DNA of 64,000 nucleotides from positions 1,520-65,519 of the forward strand of contig JAFXSR010000046.1 in the NCBI GenBank assembly GCA_017525505.1, written 5' to 3'. The position numbers and the translations under genes were made by a program. Under the pieces are notes generated by a model that saw only the letters and a list, made by a program, of their open reading frames with translations, did not search any database and was not told where the DNA came from. Position 1 is the first letter of the stretch; each line of letters begins with the position of its first letter. This document shows, piece after piece, positions 4,909 to 39,664 of the stretch. Source of the DNA: Bacteroidales bacterium. Its GTDB lineage: Bacteria; Bacteroidota; Bacteroidia; Bacteroidales; WCHB1-69.

Positions 4909-4917
4909 CAGTTTTTT

Positions 4918-4941
4918 GTTGAATTGTTGAATTGTTGATGT
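4918..4941. repeat. Short tandem word array (gttgaatt, period 8)
   Basis: The units are gttgaatt/gttgaatt/gttgatgt. The reverse-complement word aattcaac is arrayed at 28545-28574. Confidence 0.7.
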
Positions 4942-4973
4942 GTTTAATATATTTTTTCAACAATGCAAAAAAA

Positions 4974-5379
4974 GTACCGAAGGTACGATATCTCAATAAC
5001 CCCGCACGTCAGTATGGGGTCTGGGAGAGGGAGTAACATCAACTCTCGATCTGCACACATCGACAGAGCATGATGAGGCCCGTAGGGCCGAAAAGAATAC
5101 AGACAGGGGTGTAACCCCTGATACAGACAGGGGCGCAGCCCCTGGTAGAAAGGACCACATATATCATCGCGGCACGTGTTGTGTTTGCCATGATGATGTG
5201 TTATGCTTGCCGCGAAAGTGAGGGGTGATGTTACAGTGCCTCAGGATCTTGACAGAGTGAGACACCTTGGTTTTGAGTCTGACGATGTGTCGCCTCTTCG
5301 AGGCTCAGAGACATGTGTGGGCATCCTCTCACCCCACACTAACGTGCGGGGTTACTGAAATGGTGCCTCTTCGAGGCAC
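4974..5379 (+). mobile_element. MITE-like hairpin-module element, copy A
   Basis: The left end gtaccgaaggtac...tcaataaccccgcacgtcagtatggggt and the right end accccacactaacgtgcggggttactga...gtgcctcttcgaggcac are inverted repeats of each other. The element is collinear with copy B except for an extra hairpin-rich insert at about 5025-5165. Confidence 0.7.
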
Positions 5380-5409
5380 AGGCTTAGTCTTCACAAACCA
5401 ATGAAATCT

Positions 5410-5778
5410 TCAGCTGCGACTGGATTGTATATGTTTGAAATACCGTATCCTCACCGTGGTATCCTCAATGTCAATAACACCGGATGATCTGCCATCTTTG
5501 GAATTGAATTCAAGCAAACAACAATTGGGGCTCATACTCAGACGGTTGATAGGTCTCGACTTTTGCAGAGGATCAATACACTCAAAATGCTGTCCGAGAT
5601 CCGTCACCATGGTCAGACTATCGCCATCCAAACGTGCGATATAGGTAGTTTGCGGTGTATTTACCACCACATAAACATGGTCATCCACGCAAAAAGCCCC
5701 CTCAAAAATTGTATCACCATGGCGAATACCATCGATATAATAATAGTTATAAGATGAACTGGCTCTATATGATGTCAC
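5410..5778 (-). CDS. Hypothetical protein
   Basis: 122-aa ORF in the AT-rich block, co-directional with the three upstream genes. No recognisable motif. Confidence 0.35.
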   Translation of the reverse strand: MTSYRASSSYNYYYIDGIRHGDTIFEGAFCVDDHVYVVVNTPQTTYIARLDGDSLTMVTDLGQHFECIDPLQKSRPINRLSMSPNCCLLEFNSKDGRSSGVIDIEDTTVRIRYFKHIQSSRS

Positions 5779-5854
5779 ATCATTTACAATTTGAGCTTCG
5801 TCGATATAATCTTCTGCAAAATACCCATCATTTTCACCGCAAAAACGACAACCA

Positions 5855-6436
5855 TCAAAAAGAAGTATTGGCCTCCCATGTCAGTTGTTTTTCAACAAAC
5901 AACAATCCACATCCTACTTTTACTTGATATCGATCATCTTCGTAGGCAATATCAGAAACGTTTTGAACTCGTTGCCATGTCCAGTTTGTCTCATTCAAGA
6001 AATATCCAGGTTGTATATCCGGCCATAAGTCACTGTTGTATTTATCTAAAGATTTCACATAGAGCAAGTTGTCTCTGACGAACATGTCATAAGTGATGGT
6101 AAAGGTTCGATTAAAATCTTCAGGAAGCGCCATGTTTTTGACGGGGCCATCCATTTCTGGCACAGCCACAACAATAGCATTGTCCCAGTCAAAATCGTAA
6201 TAACAATAATCCCCAAATTTAAGGAAATAATAACCATGGTATTTGACAGCACGCTCAAGTCGCCAAAACTTATTCTGGAAATGCGTGTCTTTGTCAGAAT
6301 TGAAATATACATTTATGGTATCGGTGCTGACCGTGAATTGTTGTGCCCGCAAATTGGGCACCATGCCACACAGTATCATCACCAGTGCAAGCGCTATGAA
6401 TATTCTGTTTTTCATCATGGCAAATAAAGTTATCAC
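5855..6436 (-). CDS. Hypothetical secreted protein
   Basis: Signal-peptide-like N-terminus (MMKNRIFIALALVMILCGMVPNLRAQ). There is a 4-nt ATGA overlap with the upstream gene. The true start may be the internal MMKN. Confidence 0.5.
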   Translation of the reverse strand: MITLFAMMKNRIFIALALVMILCGMVPNLRAQQFTVSTDTINVYFNSDKDTHFQNKFWRLERAVKYHGYYFLKFGDYCYYDFDWDNAIVVAVPEMDGPVKNMALPEDFNRTFTITYDMFVRDNLLYVKSLDKYNSDLWPDIQPGYFLNETNWTWQRVQNVSDIAYEDDRYQVKVGCGLLFVEKQLTWEANTSF

Positions 6437-7785
6437 TCTGTTACGAATTTAAAAGGAATGTTGAAATACACTCGTTTAACCGTGCAATATTCCGAATGCC
6501 ATATAAATTTCGGCATCAGCTTAACAACTCTTATAGCTTCAGCGTCTAATTCTGGGGTTAACGATTTTAGTATTTTTGGTTCTGAGATACTGCCGTCAAC
6601 TTCCACGACGAATTCTACCAACACTGTTCCATCTGCCTCCCGAGATCCTTCAGGCCTGTGGACATTTTCTTTAAGAAAGGCCGATAATGAGTCCATTCCA
6701 CCTGGATACTCGGGTACACAATCGGGCTTGTCAAAATATGACGTATTGCTACTGCCCGTAGGTTGTAGGTCTTTGTCATTTACCCATTCCCCGTTAATAA
6801 CCCAATAATACTGTCCTGGTGGCAGTTGTGCGGCTTGTAAAATCACATCGCGGCGCCAATACTGCTCAGGTATCGTGATTTCCCTAACAATGTGATCATT
6901 GTATGTTTTCACCTCGCAAAAAGGATTAACGCATTGGTTATCGATAACCACAGTCGGATATTCCTCAAGGTCATTCATCAGGAAAATTTCCCGTGACCAA
7001 GCCGCAAGGCTGTCCGAGTACATTACATCGTAAGTATCACCATCTGAATTACCGTCTGGAATTTTAAGTCTAATACAATCTTCGCATGTAAGTATACAAA
7101 ACCATTGCGAATTGTTTTCCTGTACGTTCCAATGACCTGCTTTAAAATATCTTTCAGGAAACTCTTTCTTGAACTCTTGCGTCAAAGCTTTACAAACCTT
7201 CATTTGTCGATTTAAAACTGCTGTGTCATGATGTTGCACAGCATAACACAGACTGTCGGCCATGCGTACTAAACGCATTGTGCGACCTTCTCTGGGCACC
7301 CAAACGGAGGCAAGAGTTCTACCATAGTTGAAGTAGTATCTTGTGCCGTCAAGGCCTTGGGGTTTGAGCTCGAGATGAGTGGCTGTCAAAGTAGCACATC
7401 TGAATAGTGTTGATAGTTTTTTACATGTCTCTTCTGAAACTGGCAGCGTCATTGTTTTCACAGACACAAGCTTCAATGGATCTGGTTTATGAAAATAGTT
7501 ATAATCATAAAGTGCATTCCAAATGCTTTTATTTGATTGGTTTAATACCAATTGATTGTTCTCAATAATCAGAGCTTTTTCCGGACGAAAATAGAATGTT
7601 TTATTTGAGGCTTCCCATGTGGCACTCCCTTCATATTCCACTCCTGAGATCAACAAACGGAATAGTTTTTCATCACCATTTACTTCACTACTATATATTC
7701 CGTATGATTCAGGCTTGAGGAAATCCTGTGCCCGGCCACATAAAACGGTGGTCAGCAAGAGTAGTATCAGGGTAATTTTGCGCAT
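6433..7785 (-). CDS. Secreted protein with C-terminal TonB-C (energy transducer) domain
   Basis: Start set at MRKITLILLLLTTVLCGRAQ (signal peptide), 20 nt downstream of a TATTTTTG box. The C-terminal PEYPGGMDSLSAFLKENVHRP...GTVLVEFVVEVDGSISEPKILKSLTPELDAEAIRVVKLMP is a TonB C-terminal domain. Confidence 0.65.
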   Translation of the reverse strand: MRKITLILLLLTTVLCGRAQDFLKPESYGIYSSEVNGDEKLFRLLISGVEYEGSATWEASNKTFYFRPEKALIIENNQLVLNQSNKSIWNALYDYNYFHKPDPLKLVSVKTMTLPVSEETCKKLSTLFRCATLTATHLELKPQGLDGTRYYFNYGRTLASVWVPREGRTMRLVRMADSLCYAVQHHDTAVLNRQMKVCKALTQEFKKEFPERYFKAGHWNVQENNSQWFCILTCEDCIRLKIPDGNSDGDTYDVMYSDSLAAWSREIFLMNDLEEYPTVVIDNQCVNPFCEVKTYNDHIVREITIPEQYWRRDVILQAAQLPPGQYYWVINGEWVNDKDLQPTGSSNTSYFDKPDCVPEYPGGMDSLSAFLKENVHRPEGSREADGTVLVEFVVEVDGSISEPKILKSLTPELDAEAIRVVKLMPKFIWHSEYCTVKRVYFNIPFKFVTE

Positions 7786-7804
7786 AATGATTGTGTTTGC
7801 GTTG

Positions 7805-7812
7805 CAAAAATA
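7805..7812 (-). promoter_or_regulatory. Bacteroidota -7 promoter box (TATTTTTG)
   Basis: The reverse complement of caaaaata is TATTTTTG. It lies 20 nt upstream of the ATG at 7785. Confidence 0.5.
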
Positions 7813-7844
7813 TATAAATTTCACGAACCGTCAGGTTTCTGGCC

Positions 7845-8432
7845 TCATATTCCGCCGAAATCGCTTTCAATCATTAACCACCTCTTTTCAGCTTCCGAAT
7901 AGACAAATTTGCAGGAAATCCAATCGCTAACAGCAAGAAGCCAGCCTCTTTTTTTTATTTCATCTCCCCAACTCAGGTAAGATGACCTAATGACAATTTC
8001 AAGCGTGTCGTGATGAAATTCAACAAACGGGCATTCTGCAACATTAAACCTTTTTCTAGACTTTATTTTTTTTGTCAAAATCCATTTTCGCGGATTACTT
8101 CCATCGTATGAATAAATAGTCGTAATGCCATTATTCTCACATTTGATAACTAAAGGTTTATATTTAGAGTATTCTTCCAGCTTCAACAGCATCATATTTG
8201 AATAGCCTGAGCCATTCCCGAAGAGAAGGTAAACGGAGGTGTCATATAGATAACCTCTGTTCACATCATTAATACGAAAATGGAATTTACCCATTGTGTC
8301 TATTAGGGCATCAAGCGTTTCGGCCGCTATCATATCTAAGGATTGTTTGCCCTGCATGGTGGATGAATCTTGCGCACTTGCAGGAAATATCAGTAAAAAA
8401 GACAAAACAAAAATTGCGACAAACTGCTTCAT
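7845..8432 (-). CDS. Hypothetical secreted protein
   Basis: 195 aa with signal peptide MKQFVAIFVLSFLLIFPASAQ. No recognisable domain. Confidence 0.5.
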   Translation of the reverse strand: MKQFVAIFVLSFLLIFPASAQDSSTMQGKQSLDMIAAETLDALIDTMGKFHFRINDVNRGYLYDTSVYLLFGNGSGYSNMMLLKLEEYSKYKPLVIKCENNGITTIYSYDGSNPRKWILTKKIKSRKRFNVAECPFVEFHHDTLEIVIRSSYLSWGDEIKKRGWLLAVSDWISCKFVYSEAEKRWLMIESDFGGI

Positions 8433-8554
8433 ATTATACTTTTGGGGGCAAAGTTACACAAATTTCTCGAATTGCAGGCAGACGGATAAATTTTTGCAAA
8501 GATGCGATGAAACGCGTCCGTTGATGCATAAATTGACAGTATTGTTAACACAAG

Positions 8555-8863
8555 CTACCCTTTATTCATTTTGGAAGGGATAATCCTATCCACAATTACA
8601 ATCTCATTATCAAGATGATACACATATATCCAACGACGATTGTGAGACACCATACGCCGTGCATTAGGATGAATCGCTAGCAAAGTCTGAGATGTGGTGC
8701 GCGACATGCAACTACCATAGACCGAAAGAGATTTAATCCCATTCCTCATGGCATTAGCATAACGCACAGCTCCTTCCTCTGGCAAAATCTCTTTCAGGAA
8801 AACTCTCAACTCATTCATATCGAAAAGTGCCCCATGGCTAATTCTCACCTCATAGATTTGCAT
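8555..8863 (-). CDS. RelE/ParE-family type II toxin (apparently orphan)
   Basis: 102 aa. The pattern YEVRISHGALFDMNELRVFLKEIL...AVRYANAMRNGIKSLSVYG...WIYVYHLDNEIVIVDRIIPSKM fits the ParE/RelE plasmid-stabilisation fold signature. Confidence 0.6.
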   Translation of the reverse strand: MQIYEVRISHGALFDMNELRVFLKEILPEEGAVRYANAMRNGIKSLSVYGSCMSRTTSQTLLAIHPNARRMVSHNRRWIYVYHLDNEIVIVDRIIPSKMNKG

Positions 8864-8979
8864 AATCTTCGTGAACCAATGAGATTAATTCATCAAAATA
8901 GTCATCTACAGACATAGTATCCTCAATGATTTTGTCTTTGCTGGAAGAATCGTCTCCCTAGACATGAGGATGTCTTGGA

Positions 8980-9264
8980 GTACCGAAGGTACGACATCTC
9001 AATAACCCCGCACGTCAGTGTGGGGTATGGAATGCACAATCTAATCTAATCGCGGCATGTACTATGCATGCCCTGATGATATGTTGTGCATGCCGCGAAA
9101 GGGAGGAATGATGTTACAGGGCTTACAGGATCTTGACAGACTGTGACACCTTGGTTTTGTGTCTGATGATGTGTCGCCTCTTCGAGGCTCATAGACATGT
9201 GTGAGCATCCTTTTGCCCCACACTTACGTGCGGGGTTACTGATGTGTCGCCTCTTCGAGGCTCA
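8980..9264 (+). mobile_element. MITE-like hairpin-module element, copy B
   Basis: It has the same ends and internal order as copy A: gtaccgaaggtac, aaccccgcacgtcagtgtggggt, ...cgcgaaag..gatgttacag..ggatcttgacag..gacaccttggttttg.., gcctcttcgaggc, ccccacacttacgtgcggggttactga, gcctcttcgaggc. Confidence 0.7.
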
Positions 9265-9283
9265 GGTACAATCTTCGTGAATA

Positions 9284-11563: not shown

Positions 11564-11605
11564 AAAAGGGTGATTTATTGATTATTATTTATTTGTCTAT
11601 TATTA

Positions 11606-11757
11606 GTGTCGCCTCTTCGAGGCTTAAAGGAAGTTGGGGCTTTTTCCACCCCAGACTCACGTCTGGGGTTATTGAGATAATGCCTCTTCGAGGCATGGGG
11701 ACCAAAACAAGGTTCCTTTTACCCCATACTCATATCAGAAATTCCTCTTCGAGTCAC
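11606..11757 (+). mobile_element. MITE-like hairpin-module element, partial copy C (right-end modules only)
   Basis: The sequence is gtgtcgcctcttcgaggc ... accccagactcacgtctggggttattgaga-taatgcctcttcgaggcat, followed by a degenerate second unit accccatactcat...cctcttcgagtcac. It matches the right end of copies A and B. Confidence 0.6.
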
Positions 11758-13114: not shown

Positions 13115-13262
13115 AGTATAAAGTATAAAGTATAAAGTTTATAGTTGACAGTTGATAATTGATAGTTGACAATTGATAATTGGTTTAGGAGGTTTAGAAA
13201 GGTTACACGGTTAGGAGGTTATTAAGTTTATGGATTATGAATTTTGAATTCTGAATTAAATT
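13115..13262. repeat. Drifting tandem word array filling a whole intergenic spacer
   Basis: The units are gtataaa x3, gtttata, gttgaca, gttgata, attgata, gttgaca, attgata, then ggtttag/gaggttt-type words, then ttatgga/ttatgaa/ttttgaa/ttctgaa. The period is mostly 7. Confidence 0.8.
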
Positions 13263-16721: not shown

Positions 16722-16973
16722 CTATTTTTTTAGGGTTTCTAATGCCCGGCAGAGCTGGTCGGGGCAGGAGGTGGCTTTATCGCCACAACGGATGCCATTC
16801 AGTATGCCAATGACATCGTCAATCTTTCGGCCTGTCACCAAACGACTGATTCCTTGCAGGTTACCATGGCAACCGCCATAAAAAACAACTTGCTGAATAA
16901 CATCATTCTCATCGACCGTCACATCGATGAACTGCGAGCAGGTTCCTTGGGTTTTGTAGAGGGTGTGTTTCAT
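16722..16973 (-). CDS. TSCPD-domain protein (TIGR03905-like)
   Basis: 83 aa. The sequence reads GTCSQFIDVTVDENDVIQQVVFYGGCHGNLQGISRLVTGRKIDDVIGILNGIRCGDKATSCPDQL, with the eponymous TSCPD motif. Confidence 0.75.
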   Translation of the reverse strand: MKHTLYKTQGTCSQFIDVTVDENDVIQQVVFYGGCHGNLQGISRLVTGRKIDDVIGILNGIRCGDKATSCPDQLCRALETLKK

Positions 16974-17929
16974 ATTTGTTCATTTTTTAGTTTTTCCACC
17001 AATTCATCGCTGATGTTATTGCCTAATTGCTGGCAAACATCCTGACTCCAGCGTTGGGCCATCTTAATAAATTGACAGTTTATAGTTGACAGTTGACAGT
17101 TATTTTTGGCGAACGTTGAATCTTCCGTTTTCAATTTACCATTTTCAATGGCAAGCTTCGCATAGATATAGCCTGCGTTGAAGTTGTCACCAGCCCCTAC
17201 CGTACTGACAGTTTCTATCGGCTGCACAGGATAAGTCTCGCAGCTCTCAGGCGTATAGACCCGTATCTGGCGCGCTCCGTCAGTCAGTATCAGCGTCTGG
17301 CAATAGCGGCTCACCCGCTCATAAATGGCATCGCCGTCGTGCAAGCCGAGAAGGTACCCAAAGTCCTCCATAGAACCACGAACCACATCAGCCAGCCGCA
17401 TGTTCTCTTCAATATTGGGCATCACGTCGGGCAGGTCGGCGATATGGTTTTTACGGAAGTTGACGTCGTAATAAAGCCAGGCACCCGCCTCGTGTGCCTT
17501 ACGAAGCAAGCCACCCACCACGGAGCGTATCACAGGGTTGATAGCGAAGAACGACCCGAACAGCACCACATCATTTTTGCTAAAAGTCGGCAGAGGGCCA
17601 TCGAGCGATACTGACGCATGGTCCTTGTAAAAGACATATTGCGCATCGTTATGCTCGTTGAGGAAAGCCAACGTGATGTGTGACTTGACATTTTCGTGGC
17701 GGCAGACGTATTCCGACGACACTCCATTCTCCTGCAGGTAATTGCAAATCAGATCTCCCACGTGGTCGCCACCTACATCTGTCACCATGACACAGTTCAT
17801 GCCTGCCCGTCCCAGCGAGACGATGCTGTTGAACGTCGAGCCCCCCGGCACAGCCTTCAGCGGCTGATCGTCCTTAAAGAGGATGTCCAATACAGTTTCT
17901 CCGATACCGATGATGCGATTTTTAGTCAT
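16970..17929 (-). CDS. PfkB-family carbohydrate kinase (fructokinase)
   Basis: IIGIGETVLDILFKDDQPLKAVPGGSTFNSIVSLGRAG...LAFLNEHNDAQYVFYKD...VSTVGAGDNFNAGYIY closely follows Bacteroides fructokinase. The C-terminal region contains a heptamer tract (NNCQLSTINCQFI). Confidence 0.8.
   Translation of the reverse strand: MTKNRIIGIGETVLDILFKDDQPLKAVPGGSTFNSIVSLGRAGMNCVMVTDVGGDHVGDLICNYLQENGVSSEYVCRHENVKSHITLAFLNEHNDAQYVFYKDHASVSLDGPLPTFSKNDVVLFGSFFAINPVIRSVVGGLLRKAHEAGAWLYYDVNFRKNHIADLPDVMPNIEENMRLADVVRGSMEDFGYLLGLHDGDAIYERVSRYCQTLILTDGARQIRVYTPESCETYPVQPIETVSTVGAGDNFNAGYIYAKLAIENGKLKTEDSTFAKNNCQLSTINCQFIKMAQRWSQDVCQQLGNNISDELVEKLKNEQI
17068..17104. repeat. Heptamer tract inside the fructokinase CDS
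   Basis: The units are attgaca/gtttata/gttgaca/gttgaca/gttattt. The same GTTGACA vocabulary occurs at 13144 and 14232. Confidence 0.75.
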
Positions 17930-17956: not shown

Positions 17957-19153
17957 TTATTTCCCCTTGCTTAAAAATCTGCAAAACTCCACCAAACTGC
18001 GCTGAATGACACCGCCCACCTGTAGTTGTTCTTTATAGAGAGCCACCATCGTGGGTGACATGCTACGATTCAGTGCATAGCGAACCACCTCCATATCAGC
18101 ATCTTTGCAAAGAATAATACCGATGCTCGGGTTCTCGTTCGAGCGACGTTCTTCCTGATCCAATGCCTCCAGATAAAACTCCAGCTGCCCCAAATCCTTG
18201 GGTTGGAACTCATCGGTCTTCAACTCGATGGCCACCATACATTGCAATAGTCTGTGATAGAACAGCAAATCAACCTTGAACGTCTTGCTGCCCACAGTAA
18301 TGCGATGCTCTTCATCGATAAACAGAAAGTCTTTGCCCATCTCCATGATGAAGTCTTTCATGTGGGCAATAATTTCCCTCCGCAGTTTCGATTCTTTGTA
18401 CTTCACTGGCAGGCCAAACATCTCCAGATAGACAGTATCTTTGAACAATACGCCACTTTGCGGATATTCGCGTTTCATCATTTCCGACTGCACATCCTTG
18501 CTGCCAAGCAGAGAAGTCATGGTATTAGTCTTAATTGCCCTTACAAGCTCCTTGTTCTCCAACTGCTCTTTTCCAGCATAAAGCATATAAAACAGGCGTT
18601 CCGAATCGGTTTTGCATCTGTTCATAATAATCTGATGGTTTGTCCAACCTGTGGAGAACAGCACCCTAGGAATTTGTGCCATTTCGAATGGCACAATTAC
18701 ATCGTTTCCTATTTGTGCCATTTCGAATGGCACAATTGTCCTCTTCTCATCAGGTAGCTCTCGCTGATCAGATTTTGACGGATAGTGTTGCATGCCATAA
18801 TGATTAACCATCTCGTTGAAACTCTTCGATGAATAGGTTTCATAGAACTGCACCATCTTATAGATTGTACGATAACTCCATCCCTTAGACTTGGGACTCC
18901 TAGTGTGAATATACTCTGCCAGCATACGCACAACGCCGTCACCCCAAATGGCTTTTTTCAATCTGTCGGAAACGTATGCACCCACTTCCCAAAGCATGCG
19001 GAGCGATTCGTTATGCACGGCATACATCGCCCGTTTCTTGTGGACGAAGATAATGCCGCATATTGTATCGAACTCCTTCTTGTATGCCAAAGGATTATTG
19101 CCCGTCTCAACAACTGTTGGCATATTGCCACTATCTATTTTTTTCTTTGCCAT
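17957..19153 (-). CDS. DUF1016 / YhcG-family PD-(D/E)XK nuclease-domain protein
   Basis: Start set at MAKKKIDSG, 37 nt downstream of a TATCTTTG box. The C-terminal VDLLFYHRLLQCMVAIELKTDEFQPKDLGQLEFYLEAL is the PDDEXK core of the YhcG family. Confidence 0.7.
   Translation of the reverse strand: MAKKKIDSGNMPTVVETGNNPLAYKKEFDTICGIIFVHKKRAMYAVHNESLRMLWEVGAYVSDRLKKAIWGDGVVRMLAEYIHTRSPKSKGWSYRTIYKMVQFYETYSSKSFNEMVNHYGMQHYPSKSDQRELPDEKRTIVPFEMAQIGNDVIVPFEMAQIPRVLFSTGWTNHQIIMNRCKTDSERLFYMLYAGKEQLENKELVRAIKTNTMTSLLGSKDVQSEMMKREYPQSGVLFKDTVYLEMFGLPVKYKESKLRREIIAHMKDFIMEMGKDFLFIDEEHRITVGSKTFKVDLLFYHRLLQCMVAIELKTDEFQPKDLGQLEFYLEALDQEERRSNENPSIGIILCKDADMEVVRYALNRSMSPTMVALYKEQLQVGGVIQRSLVEFCRFLSKGK
18672..18749. 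repeat. 39-bp tandem duplication carrying a 10-bp-stem hairpin, inside the DUF1016 gene
   Basis: atttgtgccatttcgaatggcacaatt occurs twice, 39 bp (13 codons) apart, giving IVPFEMAQI twice. Each copy contains ttgtgccatt-tcg-aatggcacaa. Confidence 0.85.
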
Positions 19154-19189
19154 ATTTCTATATCTTTTTGTTTCCTCAAAAATATTTTG

Positions 19190-19197
19190 CAAAGATA
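19190..19197 (-). promoter_or_regulatory. Bacteroidota -7 promoter box (TATCTTTG) for the DUF1016 operon
   Basis: The reverse complement of caaagata lies 37 nt upstream of the ATG at 19153. Confidence 0.5.
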
Positions 19198-19293
19198 CAA
19201 AGAAAAACAAGAACACCCATGAATCCTGTGAATTATGTTTGGAGAATAATAGCGTAATAAAGTGTGTATAGAAACGCATTATGTTTTTTTTAG

Positions 19294-19943: not shown

Positions 19944-20193
19944 CTATTTAAGTTTTTCCAACGCGCGACAAAGCTGGTCAGGACAGGATGTATCCATGCT
20001 GCCGCAGCGAATACCGTTGAGTTTTTTTGATGACGTAATCTATTTTCTGTCCAACGACCAGTCTACAGATGCCTTGAAGGTTTCCGTCGCATCCGCCCAT
20101 ATAGAAAACCTGCTGTACAATGCCATCGTCATCGACGGTCACATCAATGAACTGCGAGCAGGTGGGCTGGGGTTTGGAGGGGGTGTGGGGCAT
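19944..20193 (-). pseudogene. TSCPD-domain paralogue with a frameshift in a homopolymer
   Basis: The N-terminal 50 codons parallel 16722-16973 (TCSQFIDVTVDDDGIVQQVFYMGGCDGNLQGICRLVVGQKIDYVIKK). After the A7 run (T7 on the plus strand, 20022-20028) the conserved LNGIRCGSMDTSCPDQLCRALEKLK* continues in another frame. Confidence 0.6.
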
Positions 20194-20233
20194 AGGGGCA
20201 TAGGTCAGGGTGTGTTTACACTGATCAACAATA

Positions 20234-21340
20234 TTATCGTAATCTAATTTGTAGGTTTAATTTAAACATCAAATCTCCATTTAGATCTTTATAAACCATT
20301 GCATATTTATGCCTTGTGGTACTGGCACGTTCGAGATACGCATTTGTAAACAAATAATCTTCAAATCTATTGCGGTCATAAAAATGATAACAAACAATAT
20401 CGCCGTCATTCTTCACAACAAGATAACCTCCATTTGCATCATATCGGCCTGTCCATAGTGTGGCAGGCATCATTCCAAGCGCAGCTGAGGTAAGAAGATG
20501 CTTGGCTTTGTATGTGTAAATCTCAAGTAGGTTGTTGCCTCTAAATCTCAAAGGATTTGTTTCTGACATTGTCTCAATTAATTGGGGAAAGGCTGAAATT
20601 CCTTCATCTAATTGAACTATTAGCATTGATGCAACCAAATGCGCCATGTCTCCATCCAACATTCGTATATTACGTTCAAAAACATCATTGTCAATATGAC
20701 TGTACTGGAGTCTACCACCTTTCCTCAATATGGCGTTGTATCTTTCAATAACCTTATTGCGAGACGGATTGATTTCATTAATGCTCTCAATTTCTTCATT
20801 GGTAAGATTCACACCAACTATTTTAAAGGTGAAATTTGTTGCTTCACTTGCATTTAACAATGTAGAGTTTCCGCCAAGTTGGGATTTTATACTAAAACCC
20901 ATTTCAGAGTTGAGACGAGTACGTTTATCATGCAGAACTATTCTTATATCAGTTTTATCGGAGGATCTTGCCTTGAGTGAATAACAATAAATGGAGTGCA
21001 TAAACTCTTCAATTAATGGCACAGAAAAAGCCCCGTCGTTTTCTTTTATCTTTTTCAACAGCATTTCTGATTGACTCAAAAACACATCGGCGGGAGTCCT
21101 TAAAAGTTCCTCTCCGCTTGCTTTGAAAATAACAATCTCGCTGCCTATTGGCGAATATTTGTATTTTTCTTCTCTTTCCTGTCGAATAATGGAAACAATA
21201 GGGTAAACTAAATCCAATATCCTATTTAGATTTTGGTCACCTGCATAGACTTCTCCTTCTCCTAATAGCTTCAATAAAGTGTATATCTCACTCCATTCTC
21301 CTTTATTTCCTGTTATTGCCATATTGTTTTGGTTTATCAA
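20234..21340 (-). CDS. Type II restriction endonuclease, HpaII family
   Basis: The N-terminal TGNKGEWSEIYTLLKLLGEGEVYAGD is the signature I associate with the RE_HpaII family. It overlaps the 3' end of the upstream C5-MTase gene and is AT-rich. The start may be 21322 (MAITGNK). Confidence 0.7.
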   Translation of the reverse strand: MINQNNMAITGNKGEWSEIYTLLKLLGEGEVYAGDQNLNRILDLVYPIVSIIRQEREEKYKYSPIGSEIVIFKASGEELLRTPADVFLSQSEMLLKKIKENDGAFSVPLIEEFMHSIYCYSLKARSSDKTDIRIVLHDKRTRLNSEMGFSIKSQLGGNSTLLNASEATNFTFKIVGVNLTNEEIESINEINPSRNKVIERYNAILRKGGRLQYSHIDNDVFERNIRMLDGDMAHLVASMLIVQLDEGISAFPQLIETMSETNPLRFRGNNLLEIYTYKAKHLLTSAALGMMPATLWTGRYDANGGYLVVKNDGDIVCYHFYDRNRFEDYLFTNAYLERASTTRHKYAMVYKDLNGDLMFKLNLQIRLR

Positions 21341-22544
21341 GTTTTATTCTTTTAATGATTTGTTCAGCTGTAGCCTGAATAGCAGGAACAGCAACAGAAT
21401 TACCAAATTGCTTGTATGCAGAAGCATCAGCAACGGGTATTATAAACGAGTCAGGGAACCCTTGCAGCCTTGCCCATTCTCTCGGTGTCATTCTCCGCCA
21501 GCCATCGTGGTTGATTTCCCCTTTTATGTTAGTCACGGGTGTAAAATTAGTCAAACGATTGTCTATCACTATGTTGCGCTCACGCCCCATCCCTCCAACA
21601 ACAATAGCATTTGCTACTCCGTCATCTGAGATAATCTCATAACCGAATCCGTTGCCCTTGCTTTCGTGACGCTTTTTGTGCTCGATTAATGTTTGCTGGT
21701 ATTGAGTTGAAAGATAATACTTAGGAGAGACCTCTCTGTCTTCCCTTATATCAATGAATCGTTTGGTTTTATCTGTAGGTTCAGGATATTTAAAACTCCT
21801 TACCTTCATATCTTTACGGAAACCAACAATATAAATTCTTTCTCTATGTTGTGGAACTCCAAAGTTCATAGCATTGACAATCTCAGGATCGGGTACATAA
21901 TAATCCAAATCGTTTCGTAGCACATTCAGGATTGTGTCAAGGGTTTTTCCTTTATCATGAATCATCAAACCTTTTACGTTTTCTAAAAAGAATGCTTTGG
22001 GACGTTTTCTGCGCAATATTTCTGCCACATCGAAGAATAACGTACCTCGGGTCTCTTCAAAACCACGGCGTTTACCAGCAAGAGAGAAAGCTTGGCAAGG
22101 GAATCCTGCACACAGTATGTCAAAACCATCTGGGATATATTGTTTTGTGGATTCTTTGGTTATATCTCCAAAAGGTACTTCTCCGTAATTGGCTAAATAT
22201 GTTTTTTGAGCTTGTGCATCCCATTCCGAAGAATAAATACATTTTCCTCCCAGATTTTGCATAGCAATACGAAATCCTCCTATACCAGCAAATAAATCAA
22301 TAAATGTGAATTTAGGATTTTCTGGAGCTCGAAATGGTACAGAAAGCAACTCTGGAAATAGGTTATATTGAATGTCAGGCTCTGCTACAACATTCCGTTG
22401 CTCTTTATAATTATCATTATTTAGCAAAAACAAAGCATCTTTCTCAAAAGAAAGAGCATATTTACTATGTTTATTTTGAAGATAATGCGTAACTATTGCA
22501 GAATCATCATTCAGTGAAATATTAAATTTATTTCGCATGATCAA
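21303..22544 (-). CDS. DNA (cytosine-5)-methyltransferase
   Basis: The motifs are: I FIDLFAGIGGF, IV GFPCQAFS, VI ENVKGL, VIII QHRERIYIVGF, and IX-X REWARLQGFPDSF...GNSVAVP. Confidence 0.9.
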   Translation of the reverse strand: MIMRNKFNISLNDDSAIVTHYLQNKHSKYALSFEKDALFLLNNDNYKEQRNVVAEPDIQYNLFPELLSVPFRAPENPKFTFIDLFAGIGGFRIAMQNLGGKCIYSSEWDAQAQKTYLANYGEVPFGDITKESTKQYIPDGFDILCAGFPCQAFSLAGKRRGFEETRGTLFFDVAEILRRKRPKAFFLENVKGLMIHDKGKTLDTILNVLRNDLDYYVPDPEIVNAMNFGVPQHRERIYIVGFRKDMKVRSFKYPEPTDKTKRFIDIREDREVSPKYYLSTQYQQTLIEHKKRHESKGNGFGYEIISDDGVANAIVVGGMGRERNIVIDNRLTNFTPVTNIKGEINHDGWRRMTPREWARLQGFPDSFIIPVADASAYKQFGNSVAVPAIQATAEQIIKRIKLDKPKQYGNNRK

Positions 22545-28225: not shown

Positions 28226-28544
28226 AAATACTAAAAAACATTATTTGGAATCCATGTTTGGCATAAAAAGAACCATGATAGATGATGATGAAAGGCCAGA
28301 ATCCATTGTTGATAACTTAATCCACTCATTTAAGGATTCTTAGGTCTATTGTTAATATCTTTCTGAAAAGAGCCAATGTTCTTATTTTTCTTTGTTTTAC
28401 TTTTGCAAGCCGAATTTGAGAGACGGGGAGACATGCACTACGTGCATTCGGGGAGACGGAAAGACGAAAAAACGGTGGAACAATAACCGAATACCCGAAA
28501 GAACGAAAGTGAACGCCTTAACGAGCGTCTTAACACAGGAACAG

Positions 28545-28574
28545 ATCAACAATTCAACAAATCAACGATTCAAC
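28545..28574. repeat. Short tandem word array (caacaatt, period 8) abutting the dnaB ATG
   Basis: The units are caacaatt/caacaaat/caacgatt/caac-ATG. This is the reverse complement of the 4918 array word. Confidence 0.7.
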
Positions 28575-30152
28575 ATGGAGAATAAAACTATTACTTCTAG
28601 GAAAACTGAAAACAGACTGTCATACAATACGATTGAAAATGCTTTGGGCAACACTGGAAAGATTGTGCCTCAGGCTGTTGACATAGAGGAAGCCGTGCTG
28701 GGAGCCATGTTGATTGATGCCAACGCAGTGAGTGTAGTCATCGACTCGCTGACCTCCAACATGTTCTACCGCGAGGCCAACCAGATGATTTACAAAGCGA
28801 TTTTCGACCTTTTTACCAAGTCAGAACCCATTGACCTGCTGACGGTTACCAACAAACTGCGGAAAGAGAAACAACTGGAGTTTGTGGGAGGAGCCTCTTA
28901 TCTGGCATCGCTCACCAACCGTGTGGCCTCTTCCGCCAACATCGAATACCACGCCCGTATCGTCATGGAGAAGTTTGTGTTGCGCGAGCTGATTTCCGTG
29001 TGCAGCAACATCACCCGCGATGCTTACGACGACTCCAAAGACGTACTGGAACTGATGGACAAGGCCGAGACCGACCTGTTCAACATCATCCAGAACAACT
29101 TCAAGCGCGACAGCAAAGAACTGCGCACCGTGGTGCAGAACGCCATCCACGAGCTGCAGGAGATGAACAACAAAAGCAGCGACGAGCTGCAAGTGCGCAC
29201 CGGCATCCGCGCCCTTGACGAGAAAATCGGAGGATGGCAACGCTCCGACCTGATTATCATGGCCGCCCGTCCCGGTATGGGTAAAACCTCTTTCGTGCTG
29301 TCCATCGCCCGCAACGCCGCCCTGGACTTCAACAAGAAAGTGGCTTTCTTCTCCTTGGAAATGTCCGCCACCCAGCTGGTTCACAGACTATTCGCTATCG
29401 AGTCGGGTATCTCTGCCGAAAAAATCGCCAAAGGCAAACTCAACGAAACCGAATGGATACGCCTGATGGAAAAAATCAACGTGCTTTTCAGCTCCAATCT
29501 GATCATCGACGACACCCCTGCGCTCTCCATTTTCGACTTGCGCGCCAAATGCCGCCGTCTGAAGGCTCACAACGATATCGACTTGATTATTGTGGACTAC
29601 TTGCAGCTGATGCAGGGCAATGTGGACGGAGCCAAGGGCACTGGCAACCGCGAACAGGAAATCAGCCATATCTCCCGTTCACTCAAAGCTTTGGCCAAAG
29701 ACCTGAACGTGCCTGTCATCGCCTTGTCGCAGTTGAGCCGTGCCGTTGAAACCCGCCCCGGTGTGAAACGTCCTCAGCTGTCCGACCTTCGTGAATCCGG
29801 TTCTATCGAGCAGGATGCCGATATGGTTATGTTTATCTATCGTCCTGAATATTACAAATTTGAGGCATTTGAAGACAATACGCCTTCAGAAGGTTTGGCC
29901 GATATCATGATTGAAAAGAACCGTCACGGCTCGGGCGGCAATGTCCGTATCCGCTTCCAGAGTCAGTACACCAAGTTCACCGATGTGGACGATGTGCCTC
30001 ATTTTGTAGAAAATGGTGGGGAAGGCAGCACTTTTGTCGATCCTGCCGCCGGCATTGCCCCCAGCGCCAGCTTCAGCACCTTCAACGCCAGTTTCAACGA
30101 CGAACCCGACACCAACTTTACCGGCACCGACGACGGAGAAATGCCTTTCTAA
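28575..30152 (+). CDS. dnaB: Replicative DNA helicase DnaB
   Basis: Start set at MENKTITSRK. The N-terminus reads PQAVDIEEAVLGAMLID. Walker A is ARPGMGKTSF; other motifs are IIVDYLQLM, SRSLKALAKDLNVPVIALSQLSR and QDADMVMFIYR. It has a C-terminal extension of about 45 aa. Confidence 0.9.
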   Translation: MENKTITSRKTENRLSYNTIENALGNTGKIVPQAVDIEEAVLGAMLIDANAVSVVIDSLTSNMFYREANQMIYKAIFDLFTKSEPIDLLTVTNKLRKEKQLEFVGGASYLASLTNRVASSANIEYHARIVMEKFVLRELISVCSNITRDAYDDSKDVLELMDKAETDLFNIIQNNFKRDSKELRTVVQNAIHELQEMNNKSSDELQVRTGIRALDEKIGGWQRSDLIIMAARPGMGKTSFVLSIARNAALDFNKKVAFFSLEMSATQLVHRLFAIESGISAEKIAKGKLNETEWIRLMEKINVLFSSNLIIDDTPALSIFDLRAKCRRLKAHNDIDLIIVDYLQLMQGNVDGAKGTGNREQEISHISRSLKALAKDLNVPVIALSQLSRAVETRPGVKRPQLSDLRESGSIEQDADMVMFIYRPEYYKFEAFEDNTPSEGLADIMIEKNRHGSGGNVRIRFQSQYTKFTDVDDVPHFVENGGEGSTFVDPAAGIAPSASFSTFNASFNDEPDTNFTGTDDGEMPF

Positions 30153-30155
30153 GCT

Positions 30156-30698
30156 ATGAAAAAACTATCTATGGAAGAACTCCACCGTGTAAGCCCCGAG
30201 GAGTTCAAAAAAATCAAGAAAATACCGCTGACCGTCGTTTTAGACGACATACGCAGCATGAACAATATCGGCTCCATTTTCCGCACCTGCGACGGCTTAG
30301 CCGTAGAACAGCTATATCTTTGCGGCATCACCGCCTGCCCGCCCAACAAGGAAATCAACAAAACCGCCCTCGGCGCCACCGAAAGCGTGGAATGGCATTA
30401 TTTCGAGGATGTAGTGGAAGCCGTCAAACAACTGCAACATAGTGGCTACAAGGTTTTTATGGTAGAACAAACCGACCAGTCCATCATGCTGCAAGATCTG
30501 AAAATTCCCCAAGGACAGAAAACCGCCATCATCTTGGGAAATGAGGTGTTCGGTGTCAGCGACAAACTGCTGCCCATCGTAGATGGAGCCATCGAAATCC
30601 CCCAGTTCGGTACCAAACACTCCTTCAACGTGACCATCGCCGCGGGAATGGTGATGTGGGAGATCTTTAAACAGGTTTCAGGGGTCAGGGGTCAGTGA
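30156..30698 (+). CDS. TrmH/SpoU-family RNA 2'-O-methyltransferase
   Basis: 180 aa. LTVVLDDIRSMNNIGSIFRTCDG...ILGNEVFGVS...IEIPQFGTKHSFNVTIAAGMV are the SpoU motifs. Confidence 0.8.
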   Translation: MKKLSMEELHRVSPEEFKKIKKIPLTVVLDDIRSMNNIGSIFRTCDGLAVEQLYLCGITACPPNKEINKTALGATESVEWHYFEDVVEAVKQLQHSGYKVFMVEQTDQSIMLQDLKIPQGQKTAIILGNEVFGVSDKLLPIVDGAIEIPQFGTKHSFNVTIAAGMVMWEIFKQVSGVRGQ

Positions 30699-30757
30699 TT
30701 AGGGGTTAGTGATTAGGGGTTAGGTATCAGGGATTAAGGATTCAAAATTCAAAGACT
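30679..30757. repeat. Tandem word array overlapping the trmH stop
   Basis: The units are caggggt x2, then agtgattaggggtt x2 (period 14), aggtatcagggatt, aaggatt and caaaatt. The first units encode the last codons VSGVRGQ*. Confidence 0.8.
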
Positions 30758-30832
30758 CACCTGATGCGAAGCATCACTCACCTCGAGTGCGTAGCACGAG
30801 ACTCACCCGTATTAATTACACATTAAAAAAAC

Positions 30833-31255: not shown

Positions 31256-31366
31256 TTTGAATTCTGAATTACTATTGTTGCGATATTTTTTTAATTTAGA
31301 AATTTAATCTATTGACATACAATAAGATATAATTATTCTTTAATTTTTTGATTTGAAATAATAGTT

Positions 31367-31524
31367 GGATATTGCAAACTAATCCGTTTCGCAGCGGGTT
31401 TATACAGTCCTTCGGTGCACATTACATTCGCGCTGCGAAGAGATATACCACATTTTCCATACCCCACACTGCGGCCTACGGCCTGATGTGGGTTACTGAG
31501 AGACTGTCTCTTCGAGACATATAC
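31367..31524 (-). mobile_element. MITE-like hairpin-module element, copy D (subfamily 2, inverted relative to E)
   Basis: The reverse complement aligns along its whole length with 39436-39596. It contains ccccacactgcggcctacggcctgatgtgggttactga (a TIR-type hairpin with a nested ggcc..ggcc hairpin) and gtctcttcgagac. Confidence 0.7.
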
Positions 31525-31600
31525 CTACAAGGCAGTCTGCTACTCTTCACTGCAAGATACCTGCTCAGGTCATGGCCTCGGAGAGGTCACCTCTCTGTAT

Positions 31601-39330: not shown

Positions 39331-39596
39331 AACCCCATACTCGCTGCGCTTCATATGGGGTTACAAGAGAGGAGGCCTCTTCGAGGCCGTGACCAGAACA
39401 AGTGTCTTGCAGCAAAGTGTATCAGACTGTCTTACGGATATATATATCGAAGAGACATTCTCTCAGCAACCCCACATAAGGCCGTAGGCCGAAGTGTGGG
39501 GTATGGAAAACGCGGTGTACCTCTTCGCAGTACGAATTTAATGTGCACCGAAGAACTGAATAAACCCGCTGCGAAATGGAGTAGTTTGCAATATCC
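39331..39596 (+). mobile_element. MITE-like hairpin-module element, copy E (composite; 39436-39596 is the inverted partner of D)
   Basis: The sequence is aaccccatactcgctgcgcttcatatggggtt + ggcctcttcgaggcc, then tcgaagagac...ctcagcaaccccacataaggccgtaggccgaagtgtggggtatgg...gtagtttgcaatatcc. Confidence 0.7.
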
Positions 39597-39664
39597 CACT
39601 ATCATTTCAAATTCCAAAGACTCCCCTGATGCGAAGCATCTCTCACATGAGCGCAATGGAACTC

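Follow-up and report, generated by a model that had tools for sequence, protein, structure and literature searches.

Background

In Proteobacteria, REP, BIME and REPIN elements are short imperfect intergenic palindromes that occur mostly 3' of genes, alone, in tandem or paired in inverse orientation. They combine with other short motifs into mosaics, serve as substrates of recombination and incidentally stabilise mRNA 3' ends. In Neisseria, short-repeat mosaics (NIME and Correia elements, with 'minimal mobile elements') border strain-variable cassettes that are exchanged by homologous recombination. The ends of IS200/IS605 elements and of PATEs, which derive from them and are non-autonomous, carry subterminal imperfect hairpins selected on one strand, with neither TIR-type ends nor target-site duplications.

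The BrickBuilt element of P. gingivalis is a MITE that trapped a 23-nt tandem repeat; its terminal inverted repeat (TIR) is GAGACCTTTGCA (PMC4596501). The Acido-Lenti-1 RNA motif was described by Weinberg et al. 2010 (PMC2864571) and is of uncharacterised function. It has been filed in Rfam as an sRNA since 2010 (RF01687), and a 2026 preprint reports it annotated as an ncRNA in Tannerella forsythia, which, like the bacterium considered here, belongs to the Bacteroidales.

We analysed a 64-kb chromosomal stretch (the window) of an uncultured rumen Bacteroidales bacterium. A double-hairpin module of 51 nt occurs there in eight copies in five intergenic gaps, and all copies lie directly 3' of a gene.

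Repeat elements in the window

The modules were counted with R1, a covariance model of the module, run over the window with filters off (Table 1). The repeat family is real and non-random: the pattern GGGGTTAYTGA-N8-CTCTTCGAG with at most three mismatches occurs six times, compared to 0.00 expected from 100 shuffles. The modules build two composite families (A/B and D/EF) and one tandem fragment (C). They are arranged singly, in tandem, or as inverted pairs flanking family-specific cores.

Table 1. Elements, modules and cores; positions are those of the window, scores are from R1 unless stated otherwise
Feature	Position	Strand	Remarks
Copy A, A/B-type composite	4974..5379	+	between the stop of ORF 5410-5778(-) and the rbfA promoter
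Copy A left module, Acido-Lenti-1-like	4971..5021	-	65 bits; RF01687 30.7 bits; H1 5000-5019; T hairpin GTACC-GAA-GGTAC 4974-4986
A-subtype extra segment	5040..5158	+	GGCCC-GTA-GGGCC (5077-5089); 24-nt tandem pair of GNA-loop hairpins (5097-5144)
Copy A core	5159..5307	+	H3, GAAAG, two boxes, H5
Copy A right module	5330..5380	+	66.7 bits; H1 5332-5351; T2 5365-5377
Copy B, A/B-type composite, no extra segment	8980..9264	+	begins 20 nt past the NAGLU stop
Copy B left module	8977..9027	-	68 bits; RF01687 35.9 bits; T hairpin 8980-8992; H1 9006-9025
Copy B core	9042..9191	+	H5 hairpin 9176-9188
Copy B right module	9214..9264	+	67.7 bits; H1 9216-9235; T2 9249-9261
Copy C, about 1.5 tandem units, 3' part only	11604..11757	+	R1 match; T-type hairpin 11611-11623, full module 11647-11697, then a degenerate second unit; tandem homologues elsewhere
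Copy D, second family of about 255 nt	31346..31600	+	one module, 31460-31521; H1 tip extended by GGCC-TAC-GGCC
Copy E/F, second family, inverted	39331..39617	-	module 39441-39503(-) and extra module 39331-39390(+); between convergent MFS and PPAD-like genes
Full modules, high score	4971-5021(-), 5330-5380(+), 8977-9027(-), 9214-9264(+), 11647-11697(+)		65-68 bits
Full modules, low score	31460-31521(+), 39441-39503(-), 39331-39390(+)		28-38 bits

In the A/B family, inverted modules surround a core of about 150 nt (147-151 nt among 11 distinct homologues). Copies A and B had been described in a first-pass annotation as collinear, and they are: their right ends share 87% identity in an alignment of 151 nt and their left ends 94% in one of 52 nt, and blastn gives 86% over 213 nt. 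The end sequences quoted there are present in both copies exactly as given. The inverted repeat that the ends were said to form does exist in an imperfect form, with a length and identity of 31 nt and 87% for A and of 42 nt and 83% for B. The order of parts in copy A is T1' hairpin, linker, H1', three extra hairpins with GNA triloops, the core, H1, linker, and T2 hairpin. In the core, the H3 stem TCGCGGCA...TGCCGCGA (5167-5215) is followed by GAAAG, a GTTACAG box, a TCTTGACAG box and the H5 hairpin GCCTC-TTC-GAGGC (5292-5304). The extra segment of copy A is also present in the related loci L138, L139, L143 and L146.

Of the partial or variant copies listed earlier, 11606-11757 is indeed a fragment of this kind, the tandem fragment C, whose tandem homologues are found in loci L072, L107, L012 and L066. 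In contrast, 31367-31524 and 39331-39596 are not partial A/B elements but belong to two inverted copies of the second family, which are 84% identical to each other and share only the module with A and B. The elements are intergenic and non-coding, as had been stated: every copy lies between genes, and the ORFs of 100-120 amino acids that cross some homologues show no codon-position bias, with 19/19/20 substitutions at codon positions 1/2/3. The stems described as closing on C(TTCG)G loops have no cUUCGg tetraloop; they are 5-bp palindromic stems with a TTC triloop, read as C-GAA-G on the opposite strand.

Several other identities were considered. Integron attC sites, XerCD/dif sites and CRISPR were rejected from a reading of the sequence: a GTTRRRY box is missing, the hairpins fall short of the length needed and the tandem arrays lack unique spacers. 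No tRNA or tmRNA was found in the window. A phage or plasmid origin was dismissed, since neither the region nor copy B has a megablast or blastn match in phages or plasmids, and none of 2.9 million viral contigs contains the module pattern.

The module and the Acido-Lenti-1 motif

The module (about 47-51 nt) consists of an 8-bp stem CCCC-RYRC / GYRY-GGGG with a variable tip, a linker TTAYTGAGAT, and a 5-bp stem capped by a TTC triloop. The scheme 8+4+8 / 13 / 5+3+5 holds for each of the 25 canonical modules. The module nearly matches the Acido-Lenti-1 motif, of which it would be the Bacteroidales version. The best RF01687 scores in the window are 35.9 bits (8979-9025, minus strand; whole-window E 1.8e-4) and 30.7 bits (4973-5019, minus strand; whole-window E 4.8e-3), below the gathering score of 37; in another search the left module of copy A had an E of 4e-5 at the same 30.7 bits. 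At the gathering score of 37 bits RF01687 has no match in the window nor in 19 related loci, and no Rfam family reaches its gathering threshold over the whole window or in these loci. A DicF candidate at 49366 reached 25 bits, where the gathering score is 48, and was discarded as a chance match.

The RF01687 alignment of the module is full-length (model positions 1-46), and the module was compared directly with the published seed. Both have two hairpins, an 8-bp stem opening with CC and closing with GG, a C-U-N-A-C-G-like loop (CUNACG), a linker of about 12-13 nt opening with (C/U)UA, and a 5-bp stem that carries a UUC triloop and has a U after it. Both are multi-copy and often form tandem arrays. 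The module differs in its CCCC/GGGG-rich stem, in the linker TTAYTGAGAT and in its host, as the hosts of RF01687 are Acidobacteria and Lentisphaerae. Unlike RF01687 as described, the motif in Bacteroidales is a brick inside larger composite elements and MITEs.

Both hairpins of the module are kept by compensatory change. Among 25 sequences, 94.8% of the cells are paired and 41 cells have double changes, compared to 13 in shuffles; among 124 distinct sequences the values are 95.9% and 221 compared to 67, all for modules that were picked or aligned with the structure in mind. The double changes fall in 7-10 of the 13 base pairs, and none of 500 shuffles matched the observed covariation score. 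The linker and the stem ends are conserved across phyla, and the stem interior covaries. Covariation alone cannot distinguish RNA hairpins from hairpins in single-stranded DNA.

The core is different. RNAalifold applied to 11 distinct A/B cores found no stems other than H3, H4 and H5 and gave a covariation term of -1.1, and a complex RNA fold in the core was thus rejected. The structured-RNA alternative of the first-pass annotation, which had not placed the family in Rfam, holds in part: the end module is a near-threshold RF01687 match, but the core covaries weakly, and the unbiased orientation of the modules, the equal folding of both strands and the target-site duplications of a sister family (all below) speak against an RNA gene.

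The folded strand

On the strand modelled by Rfam, A·C is more frequent in stems than G·T, 51 vs 14 in our module set and 38 vs 8 in the published RF01687 seed. The seed loops UUC, UAC, UGC and UCC read as GNA on the opposite strand. Of the two strands, the complement is predicted to fold with the lower energy for 98 of 118 modules when RNA parameters are used and for 106 of 117 when DNA parameters are used. Hairpins of 5 bp of the type C-GNA-G occur 18 times in the window (14 of them intergenic), compared to 1.6±1.4 in shuffles. Triloops of the d(GNA) type with a closing C·G pair make exceptionally stable DNA minihairpins (PMC13037366, PMC3201870). The A·C mismatches and UNC loops suggest that folding takes place on the strand opposite to the Rfam one, which gives C-GNA-G minihairpins. 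The restriction of G-T pairs to one strand, reported earlier, is real, but its size is modest: once related copies are collapsed the asymmetry is weaker, with 19 distinct stem types having only A·C and nine only G·T. The two strands of copy B fold equally well (z -8.6 and -9.3).

Distribution and a sister subfamily

Further copies exist well beyond the window, and the module is multi-copy in many rumen Bacteroidales metagenome-assembled genomes (MAGs). Among the matches listed, it occurs in more than 116 stretches of GTDB species genomes, which come mostly from rumen Bacteroidales MAGs. Cytophagales, Chitinophagales and Ignavibacteria have it as well, and in Chryseolinea it forms an array of about 2 kb with a 69-nt period. 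For the full A/B core, the metagenome scan gave just 12 stretches.

Other rumen Bacteroidales MAGs contain a sister subfamily, S1, of 183 nt, which carries the module and has a 26-nt TIR, GGCTCTAGTTTGATAAAAGACTGATT. S1 is a textbook MITE: 9 of 12 full copies with alignable ends have 8-bp target-site duplications. Its copies are 98-100% identical across MAGs and are unbiased in orientation relative to genes. It traps the module just as BrickBuilt traps its 23-nt repeat. The S1 TIR is absent from the window, and the BrickBuilt / MITEPgRS TIR and 23-nt internal repeat have no matches in the window at one mismatch or fewer.

Strain variation at the modules

The presence and size of the elements vary at a fixed site in this species. 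The 3' end of NAGLU has four alleles: no element, the flank only, a minimal 85-nt element that has one H1, and copy B at its full 285 nt. In the interval between NAGLU and rbfA, the gene content varies between contigs with identical RbfA. Locus L146 is collinear with the window; a 1.4-kb TonB_C gene is inserted there exactly beside the T2 hairpin of copy B, which is exchanged for an A-type T2. Strain-specific gene cassettes begin and end at modules.

Empty sites had been proposed as a mark of insertion. Polymorphism in presence and size is indeed seen at NAGLU and upstream of rbfA, but no clean empty site, because the flanks of filled and empty alleles are replaced. The variation between strains looks like segment replacement or recombination rather than clean insertion, and the polymorphisms could be old and maintained, not a product of ongoing mobility. 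For copy D the comparison was uninformative, since all 15 contigs encoding an identical thioesterase carry the same 440-nt spacer.

Nature and spread of the elements

The elements are probably, though by no means securely, DNA-level intergenic mosaic repeats rather than RNA genes, working in the manner of REP/BIME/REPIN or NIME/Correia elements. The window modules resemble REP sequences: they are short imperfect palindromes, present in multiple copies outside genes and often paired in inverse orientation. However, the unit consists of two hairpins and a conserved linker, the consensus has no GTAG-type 5' signature, no RAYT (Y1_Tnp) gene was found in the window or among neighbouring ORFs, and the inverted pairs bracket cores of 150-250 nt, whereas those of REP elements span a few bases. 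As in Neisseria, the elements border strain-variable cassettes between conserved genes; the sequences are unrelated, and no link to uptake sequences or phage integration was shown for the window elements. The subterminal imperfect hairpins, one-strand selection and lack of target-site duplications recall IS200/IS605 ends and PATEs, but the IS200/IS605 end hairpins are on the same strand, whereas the window end modules are inverted, and no TnpA or TnpB was found.

Orientation speaks against an RNA gene: in co-directional gene contexts the modules are oriented 22 vs 20, with no bias, and S1 behaves likewise. If modules and cores were transcribed in 3' UTRs or as sRNAs, acting as terminators, blocks to 3'-exonucleases or a structured sRNA, in keeping with how Rfam files Acido-Lenti-1, one could explain the near-threshold RF01687 matches, the strong covariation of both hairpins, the location of all window copies just 3' of genes, and the G·U vs A·C asymmetry as selection on one strand. 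The gene-sense strand of copy A also ends in GTACCTTCGGTAC followed by T7 (4967-4973, after the left hairpin on the minus strand), a terminator-like site, and loci L004 and L006 have the same hairpin with a T6 run. However, copy A has the only such run in the window, so that termination was rejected as a general role. The A/B core has polarity and is antisense to co-directional genes in four of five independent loci, which could hint at a strand-specific function. On the other hand, any transcript of an inverted pair would hold one module in each orientation, the better-folding strand is opposite to the one modelled by Rfam, the core has almost no compensatory change, no Bacteroidetes-type promoter is evident on reading the sequence at element starts, and the same module is part of a MITE that has target-site duplications and of 2-kb satellite arrays. 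An RNA-level function is accordingly rather unlikely.

The proposal that the family is MITE-like was only partly right, because the window copies lack target-site duplications and a transposase partner. The copies are short, non-coding, multi-copy, intergenic, bounded by inverted modules (the imperfect repeats of A and B) and related to S1, and the module is enriched at MAG contig ends, all as expected if A, B, D and E/F had been inserted by a DDE transposase acting on inverted ends and their duplications and empty sites had since eroded. However, the best direct repeats flanking copies A, B, C, D and E/F are 4-5 nt, and repeats as good or better flank 34-83% of random window pairs, so that no target-site duplication rises above chance. 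Conserved sequence, different on the two sides and non-inverted, runs about 20-35 nt past the end hairpins, and the modules therefore appear to be subterminal rather than true termini. Add to this the replaced flanks, the few stretches with the full A/B core and the absence of the S1 and BrickBuilt TIRs from the window, and insertion as classical MITEs becomes quite unlikely.

The search for an enzyme bears on this and on one further candidate, a hypothetical dedicated single-stranded DNA enzyme (a RAYT-like Y1/HUH transposase) reading the 8-bp hairpin and the TTAYTGA linker as its cis site. Such an enzyme would account for a linker and stem ends conserved across phyla around a covarying stem interior, for the REPIN-like inverted pairs, for the strand preference with its GNA minihairpins, and for the tandem arrays. 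Yet none of the 62 ORFs of the window encodes a transposase or belongs to an insertion sequence, and none recurs beside about 140 modules in about 115 loci; no insertion sequence with matching terminal inverted repeats was found in either set. All-against-all clustering of 1,260 ORFs from these loci yielded only housekeeping families, the largest in five loci, and Pfam detected no transposase, integrase, reverse transcriptase or Y1/HUH enzyme among the window ORFs and the neighbours of the Chryseolinea array. As the module also lacks the REP 5' GTAG signature, we regard a dedicated enzyme as quite unlikely.

Returning to DNA-level mosaic repeats, the hairpins would form on the complement of the strand annotated in Rfam, in single-stranded DNA, the short one as a C-GNA-G minihairpin. 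Homologous recombination and slippage between modules may create and reshuffle the window copies, as may hitch-hiking on MITEs or an enzyme acting in trans; since no enzyme or autonomous partner was found, we only infer the means of spread in this species. The main consequence would be the creation of recombination junctions, with 3'-end hairpins, such as the one with T7 in copy A, supplied incidentally.

A bolder and distinctly unlikely extension is that the 'Acido-Lenti-1 RNA' is the single-stranded DNA recognition module of a repeat-dispersal system spanning phyla such as Bacteroidota, Lentisphaerae, Acidobacteria and Ignavibacteria. The 8-bp hairpin, the TTAYTGA-type linker and the C-GNA-G minihairpin would be read on the strand opposite to that of Rfam, a putative trans-acting enzyme would copy the module into intergenic DNA, MITEs and satellite arrays, and in rumen Bacteroidales the modules would set the junctions for the exchange of strain-specific gene cassettes.

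For Bacteroidales at least, the window and its relatives establish the motif as a building brick of repeated DNA, present in a MITE, in satellite arrays and in composite elements at recombination junctions. Acido-Lenti-1 is possibly a misfiled Rfam family, whose published seed itself bears the opposite-strand signature (A·C over G·U, and UNC loops reading as GNA); if so, an 'ncRNA' annotation is spreading for something that is not an RNA gene.

Like other bacterial MITEs, BrickBuilt included, the elements are small, non-coding, intergenic, multi-copy and assembly-breaking, from which they differ in the absence of target-site duplications and of an insertion sequence with matching ends. The repeats delimit strain-variable cassettes and are thus relevant to pangenomes of uncultured Bacteroidales. 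They also break rumen MAG assemblies: in 12 of 15 loci given by whole contigs, no more than 250 nt separate the module match from a contig end.

Repeats of the window

The covariance model R1, built from 25 canonical copies of the repeat module and run on the window with filters off, places eight full modules exactly in the five intergenic gaps named in the first-pass annotation, and three isolated copies of the short hairpin alone. The end sequences quoted there for the repeats are found as stated. Copies A and B are indeed collinear: identity is 94% in the left 52 nt, 87% in the right 151 nt and 86% when measured over 213 nt. The ends of each copy make up an imperfect inverted repeat, 31 nt long in A and 42 nt in B. 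The extra segment of A (about 120 nt) consists of three small hairpins. The signature GGGGTTAYTGA-N8-CTCTTCGAG occurs six times in the window at up to three mismatches, and never in 100 shuffles. In agreement with that annotation, the ORFs running across the elements are not coding. On the other hand, the regions 31367-31524 and 39331-39596, taken for partial or variant A/B copies, are parts of another element, whose two inverted copies (D and E/F) are 84% identical and have only the module in common with A/B.

Coordinates and loci of the described features (L numbers are related contigs or loci from other assemblies)
Feature	Location	Description
Copy A	4974-5379	A/B family
Copy B	8980-9264	A/B family
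Copy C	11604-11757	about 1.5 tandem units, 3' part alone
Copy D	31346-31600	element of about 255 nt
Copy E/F	39331-39617	element of about 255 nt
NAGLU 3' allele 1	L001	nothing
NAGLU 3' allele 2	L005, L007	15-nt flank motif only
NAGLU 3' allele 3	L004, L006, L010	85-nt minimal element
NAGLU 3' allele 4	window	285-nt copy B, core between two long-hairpin copies
Short tandem arrays	4916-4938, 13136-13182, 17072-17101, 28540-28575, 30678-30732, 31631-31668, 32410-32442, 32484-32505, 39665-39691, 48626-48654, 48738-48791, 55973-56003	3-8 copies of a 7-8-nt unit
Small repeat TTCAAAWTYCAAAGACTCNCCTGATGCGAAGCATC	30741-30781, 39606-39646, 53446-53486	last copy weaker
Paired S1 copies	L052 4687-6784	inverted, on either side of an AAA-ATPase_like/PDDEXK_9 gene
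Satellite	L057 1897-3945	Chryseolinea sp. chromosome; about 2 kb, about 30 head-to-tail 69-nt units
165-nt direct repeat	16810-16974, 20030-20194	71% identical
Palindrome ATTTGTGCCATTTCGAATGGCACAATT	18672-18698, 18711-18737	27 nt, two perfect copies 39 nt apart
YhcG/DUF1016 nuclease ORF	17957-19279	minus strand
HpaII-type pair	20234-22544	RE_HpaII and C5 methylase; low GC (0.39-0.41)
PDDEXK_2 protein	54922-55860	'PD-(D/E)XK nuclease family transposase', Rpn-like; in the segment where the window's GC is lowest (0.36)

The module of about 51 nt is present in every copy. Its long hairpin has 8 bp (CCCC-RYRC / GYRY-GGGG) and a tip of 4 nt or an extra stem of 10-30 nt. The linker TTAYTGAGAT plus a few bases leads to the short hairpin, a 5-bp palindromic stem around TTC. 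The loops previously read as C(TTCG)G are not cUUCGg tetraloops but triloops, C-TTC-G on one strand and C-GAA-G on the other.

Many intergenic regions also contain short tandem arrays (units such as TTGTTGAA, AGTTGAT, TCAGGGG, CCTTCCA and AAACAAAT), often adjoining hairpin elements or just upstream of promoters; the same pattern is seen in relatives (flanks in L064, L012, L103). The hairpin of a second small repeat, TTCAAAWTYCAAAGACTCNCCTGATGCGAAGCATC, contains an exact d(GCGAAGC) mini-hairpin. One copy lies directly beside element E/F, and at 30755-30796 a GTA-loop hairpin comes next.

Relation to Acido-Lenti-1

The Rfam search yielded one meaningful family at relaxed thresholds, RF01687 (Acido-Lenti-1 RNA). 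Its two hits, both on the minus strand, score 35.9 bits (8979-9025) and 30.7 bits (4973-5019); the gathering score of 37 bits was narrowly missed in the window as well as in 19 related loci. The published seed (87 sequences from Lentisphaera, Koribacter, Rhodopirellula, Geobacter and metagenomes) has the design of the module, including a CUNACG-type loop, a (C/U)UA linker start and a UUC triloop followed by U. Since the design is the same and the score falls narrowly below that of formal membership, we call the module Acido-Lenti-1-like; by sequence, the window elements are a Bacteroidales variant. In the seed the motif is repeated in tandem, with periods close to 70, 110 and 190 nt. Its authors gave no function beyond 'sometimes near group II introns' (Weinberg et al. 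2010, PMC2864571), and a 2026 preprint mentions Acido-Lenti-1 annotations in Tannerella forsythia, about which, it says, little is known.

R1 identified 144 modules in 100 of the loci from a pattern scan of GTDB species genomes. In 124 distinct modules 95.9% of cells are paired, with figures close to these in the 25 hand-picked modules, although both alignments were picked or fitted with the structure in mind and the paired percentage is therefore inflated. Double changes occur in 10 of 13 pairs (221 cells versus 67 in shuffles). Compensatory types are plain in the sequences, both in the long stem (CCCCACAC/GTGTGGGG, CCCCAGAC/GTCTGGGG, CCCCCGGG/CCCGGGGG) and in the short one (GCCTC, GTACC, ATCCC, GTCCC, GCATC). 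Both helices are well supported, and the module is a conserved, covarying double hairpin dispersed in multiple copies.

Sister element S1

A 183-nt element with the module inside, S1, was found in several different rumen Bacteroidales MAGs (generally L011-L126). It has 26-nt terminal inverted repeats, GGCTCTAGTTTGATAAAAGACTGATT, its copies from different MAGs are 98-100% identical, and its orientation relative to genes is unbiased. Of the 12 complete copies whose ends can be aligned, 9 are flanked by perfect, AT-rich 8-bp target-site duplications, and the remaining three have exchanged flanks among themselves. S1 is a true MITE, and its terminal repeats and target-site duplications demonstrate that the module has been carried about as DNA in this clade. 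No autonomous IS was identified for S1. Two S1 copies bracket an ATPase gene in L052. Membership of the window repeats in the P. gingivalis BrickBuilt/MITEPgRS elements was rejected after sequence comparison; BrickBuilt (PMC4596501) is still a useful precedent of a MITE that trapped a repeat.

Strain variation between NAGLU and rbfA

The interval between NAGLU and rbfA (window 5380-9283; L001-L010, L146) differs greatly among metagenome contigs with identical RbfA. The alternatives include TonB_C genes with small ORFs (76-195 aa), an AAA_14/DUF4143 ATPase, polysaccharide genes and an LRR-T9SS protein. The sequence directly 3' of the NAGLU stop codon occurs in a series of four allelic states; the minimal element comprises a short hairpin, a linker, one long hairpin, a linker and a short hairpin with T6. 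L146 is collinear with the window except for a 1.4-kb TonB_C gene inserted exactly beside the outer hairpin of B, which is itself swapped for an A-type version. Thus elements vary in size and presence within the species of the window, with cassette breakpoints at modules. The 15-nt motif TTCACGAAGATTATGC, repeated at the junctions, holds the start codon of a family of ORFs of about 100 aa.

Upstream of rbfA, copy A stands in place of 34 nt found in other strains and does not merely interrupt their sequence. For none of the five window elements do flanking direct repeats exceed chance, and conserved sequence, unlike on the two sides, runs past the hairpins. The window copies thus act like recombination-prone mosaic repeats situated at cassette junctions, and not like cut-and-paste MITEs of recent insertion. 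The earlier MITE-like reading is only partly right; that the window copies are eroded classical MITEs seems improbable.

DNA or RNA

One possibility is that the module acts in RNA, as a 3' UTR element, terminator or sRNA. The near match to RF01687 and the covarying helices agree with the structured-RNA alternative of the first-pass annotation, and the hairpin of copy A with T7 scores terminator-like. However, several independent lines point to a DNA-level element. With the module set on one strand, co-directional neighbours are balanced, 22 (-,-) versus 20 (+,+). Copy B folds alike on both strands (-120 and -134 kcal/mol, z -8.6 and -9.3). The A/B core, 147-151 nt in 11 distinct homologues (a metagenome scan gave only 12 stretches), is kept in sequence almost without compensatory change, and S1 has moved the module as DNA. 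As a further line, no protein family recurs beside modules in the module-bearing loci, and the ORFs crossing elements are non-coding. A role in RNA is thus unlikely.

G-T pairing on one strand only had also been noted. Mismatches are indeed skewed: the Rfam-annotated strand has 51 A·C and 14 G·T stem cells, and the published seed 38 A·C versus 8 G·U; the seed triloops UUC, UAC, UGC and UCC read GNA on the complement. Predicted energy is lower for the complement in 98 of 118 modules (RNA parameters) and in 106 of 117 (DNA parameters), but neither these counts nor the mismatches are independent, as the copies are related; once the copies are reduced to distinct stem types, 19 types show only A·C and 9 only G·T, a difference that is no more than suggestive. 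The short hairpin reads NNNNC-GNA-GNNNN on the complement, and PMC13037366 and PMC3201870 describe C·G-closed d(GNA) triloops as unusually stable DNA 'mini-hairpins'. The window contains 18 5-bp C-GNA-G hairpins (14 intergenic), versus 1.6±1.4 in shuffles. The module may have been selected as a single-stranded DNA structure.

We regard a mosaic repeat acting at the DNA level, with the mechanism that follows, as somewhat more probable than its negation. Modules would provide portable homology and single-stranded hairpins that promote slippage, which could generate tandem arrays and minimal versus full alleles. Recombination between copies, which modules would also promote, might account for the exchange of T2, the outer short hairpin of B, and for cassette junctions. 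New copies could arise by hitch-hiking in MITEs or through a putative trans-acting enzyme, and as a secondary effect modules may supply 3'-end hairpins. A dedicated RAYT-like ssDNA enzyme system, which overlaps the conjectural part of this mechanism, is distinctly improbable. The closest functional parallels are probably REP/BIME/REPIN and the neisserial mosaic elements. No description of the composite A/B and D/EF elements, the S1 MITE or the strand re-reading of RF01687 was found in the literature as searched. The data suggest that a family long listed as 'ncRNA' is a module of repeated DNA.

Distribution and genomic setting

With GTDB species represented by one genome each, an exact-pattern scan gave at least 116 stretches. 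Among the matches listed, Bacteroidales MAGs from rumen or gut (RGIG, RUG, UBA3816, 'Prevotella sp. CAG:1031') make up the majority, and others belong to Lewinellaceae, Chitinophagaceae and Ignavibacteria. Several genomes give at least 7-10 module-bearing contigs each. Fifteen loci are whole contigs, and in 12 of them the module lies within 250 nt of a contig end, as expected of a repeat that breaks assemblies. In rumen Bacteroidales, module repeats both shape the variation between strains and interrupt assemblies. None of 2.9 million viral contigs contains the pattern, and plasmid and phage records gave no match to copy B. In the Chryseolinea satellite each unit is an Acido-Lenti-1-like module with a spacer of about 20 nt; there are no unique spacers, and the flanks contain unannotated small ORFs on one side and a GH43-like gene on the other.

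The window is ordinary chromosomal DNA of about 47% G+C from a Bacteroidales bacterium, with genes for PorZ, a PPAD-like protein with a T9SS C-terminal domain, rbfA, NAGLU, DnaB, EF-G, SHMT and similar others; a search of it for tRNA genes found none. Most genes of the first 31 kb are on the minus strand. The exact RbfA protein is also encoded on contigs of many ruminant metagenomes and in the MAG GCA_017633255.1 ('Bacteroidales bacterium RGIG9334', yak abomasum). The PDDEXK_2 protein has the sole transposase-like Pfam name in the window, with no connection to the repeats seen. The 165-nt direct repeat flanks a PfkB-YhcG segment beside the HpaII-type pair, and the low GC and bracketing repeat suggest that this neighbourhood may be an acquired island. 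The palindromes ATTTGTGCCATTTCGAATGGCACAATT lie inside the YhcG/DUF1016 ORF, at an insertion in the DUF1016_N match.
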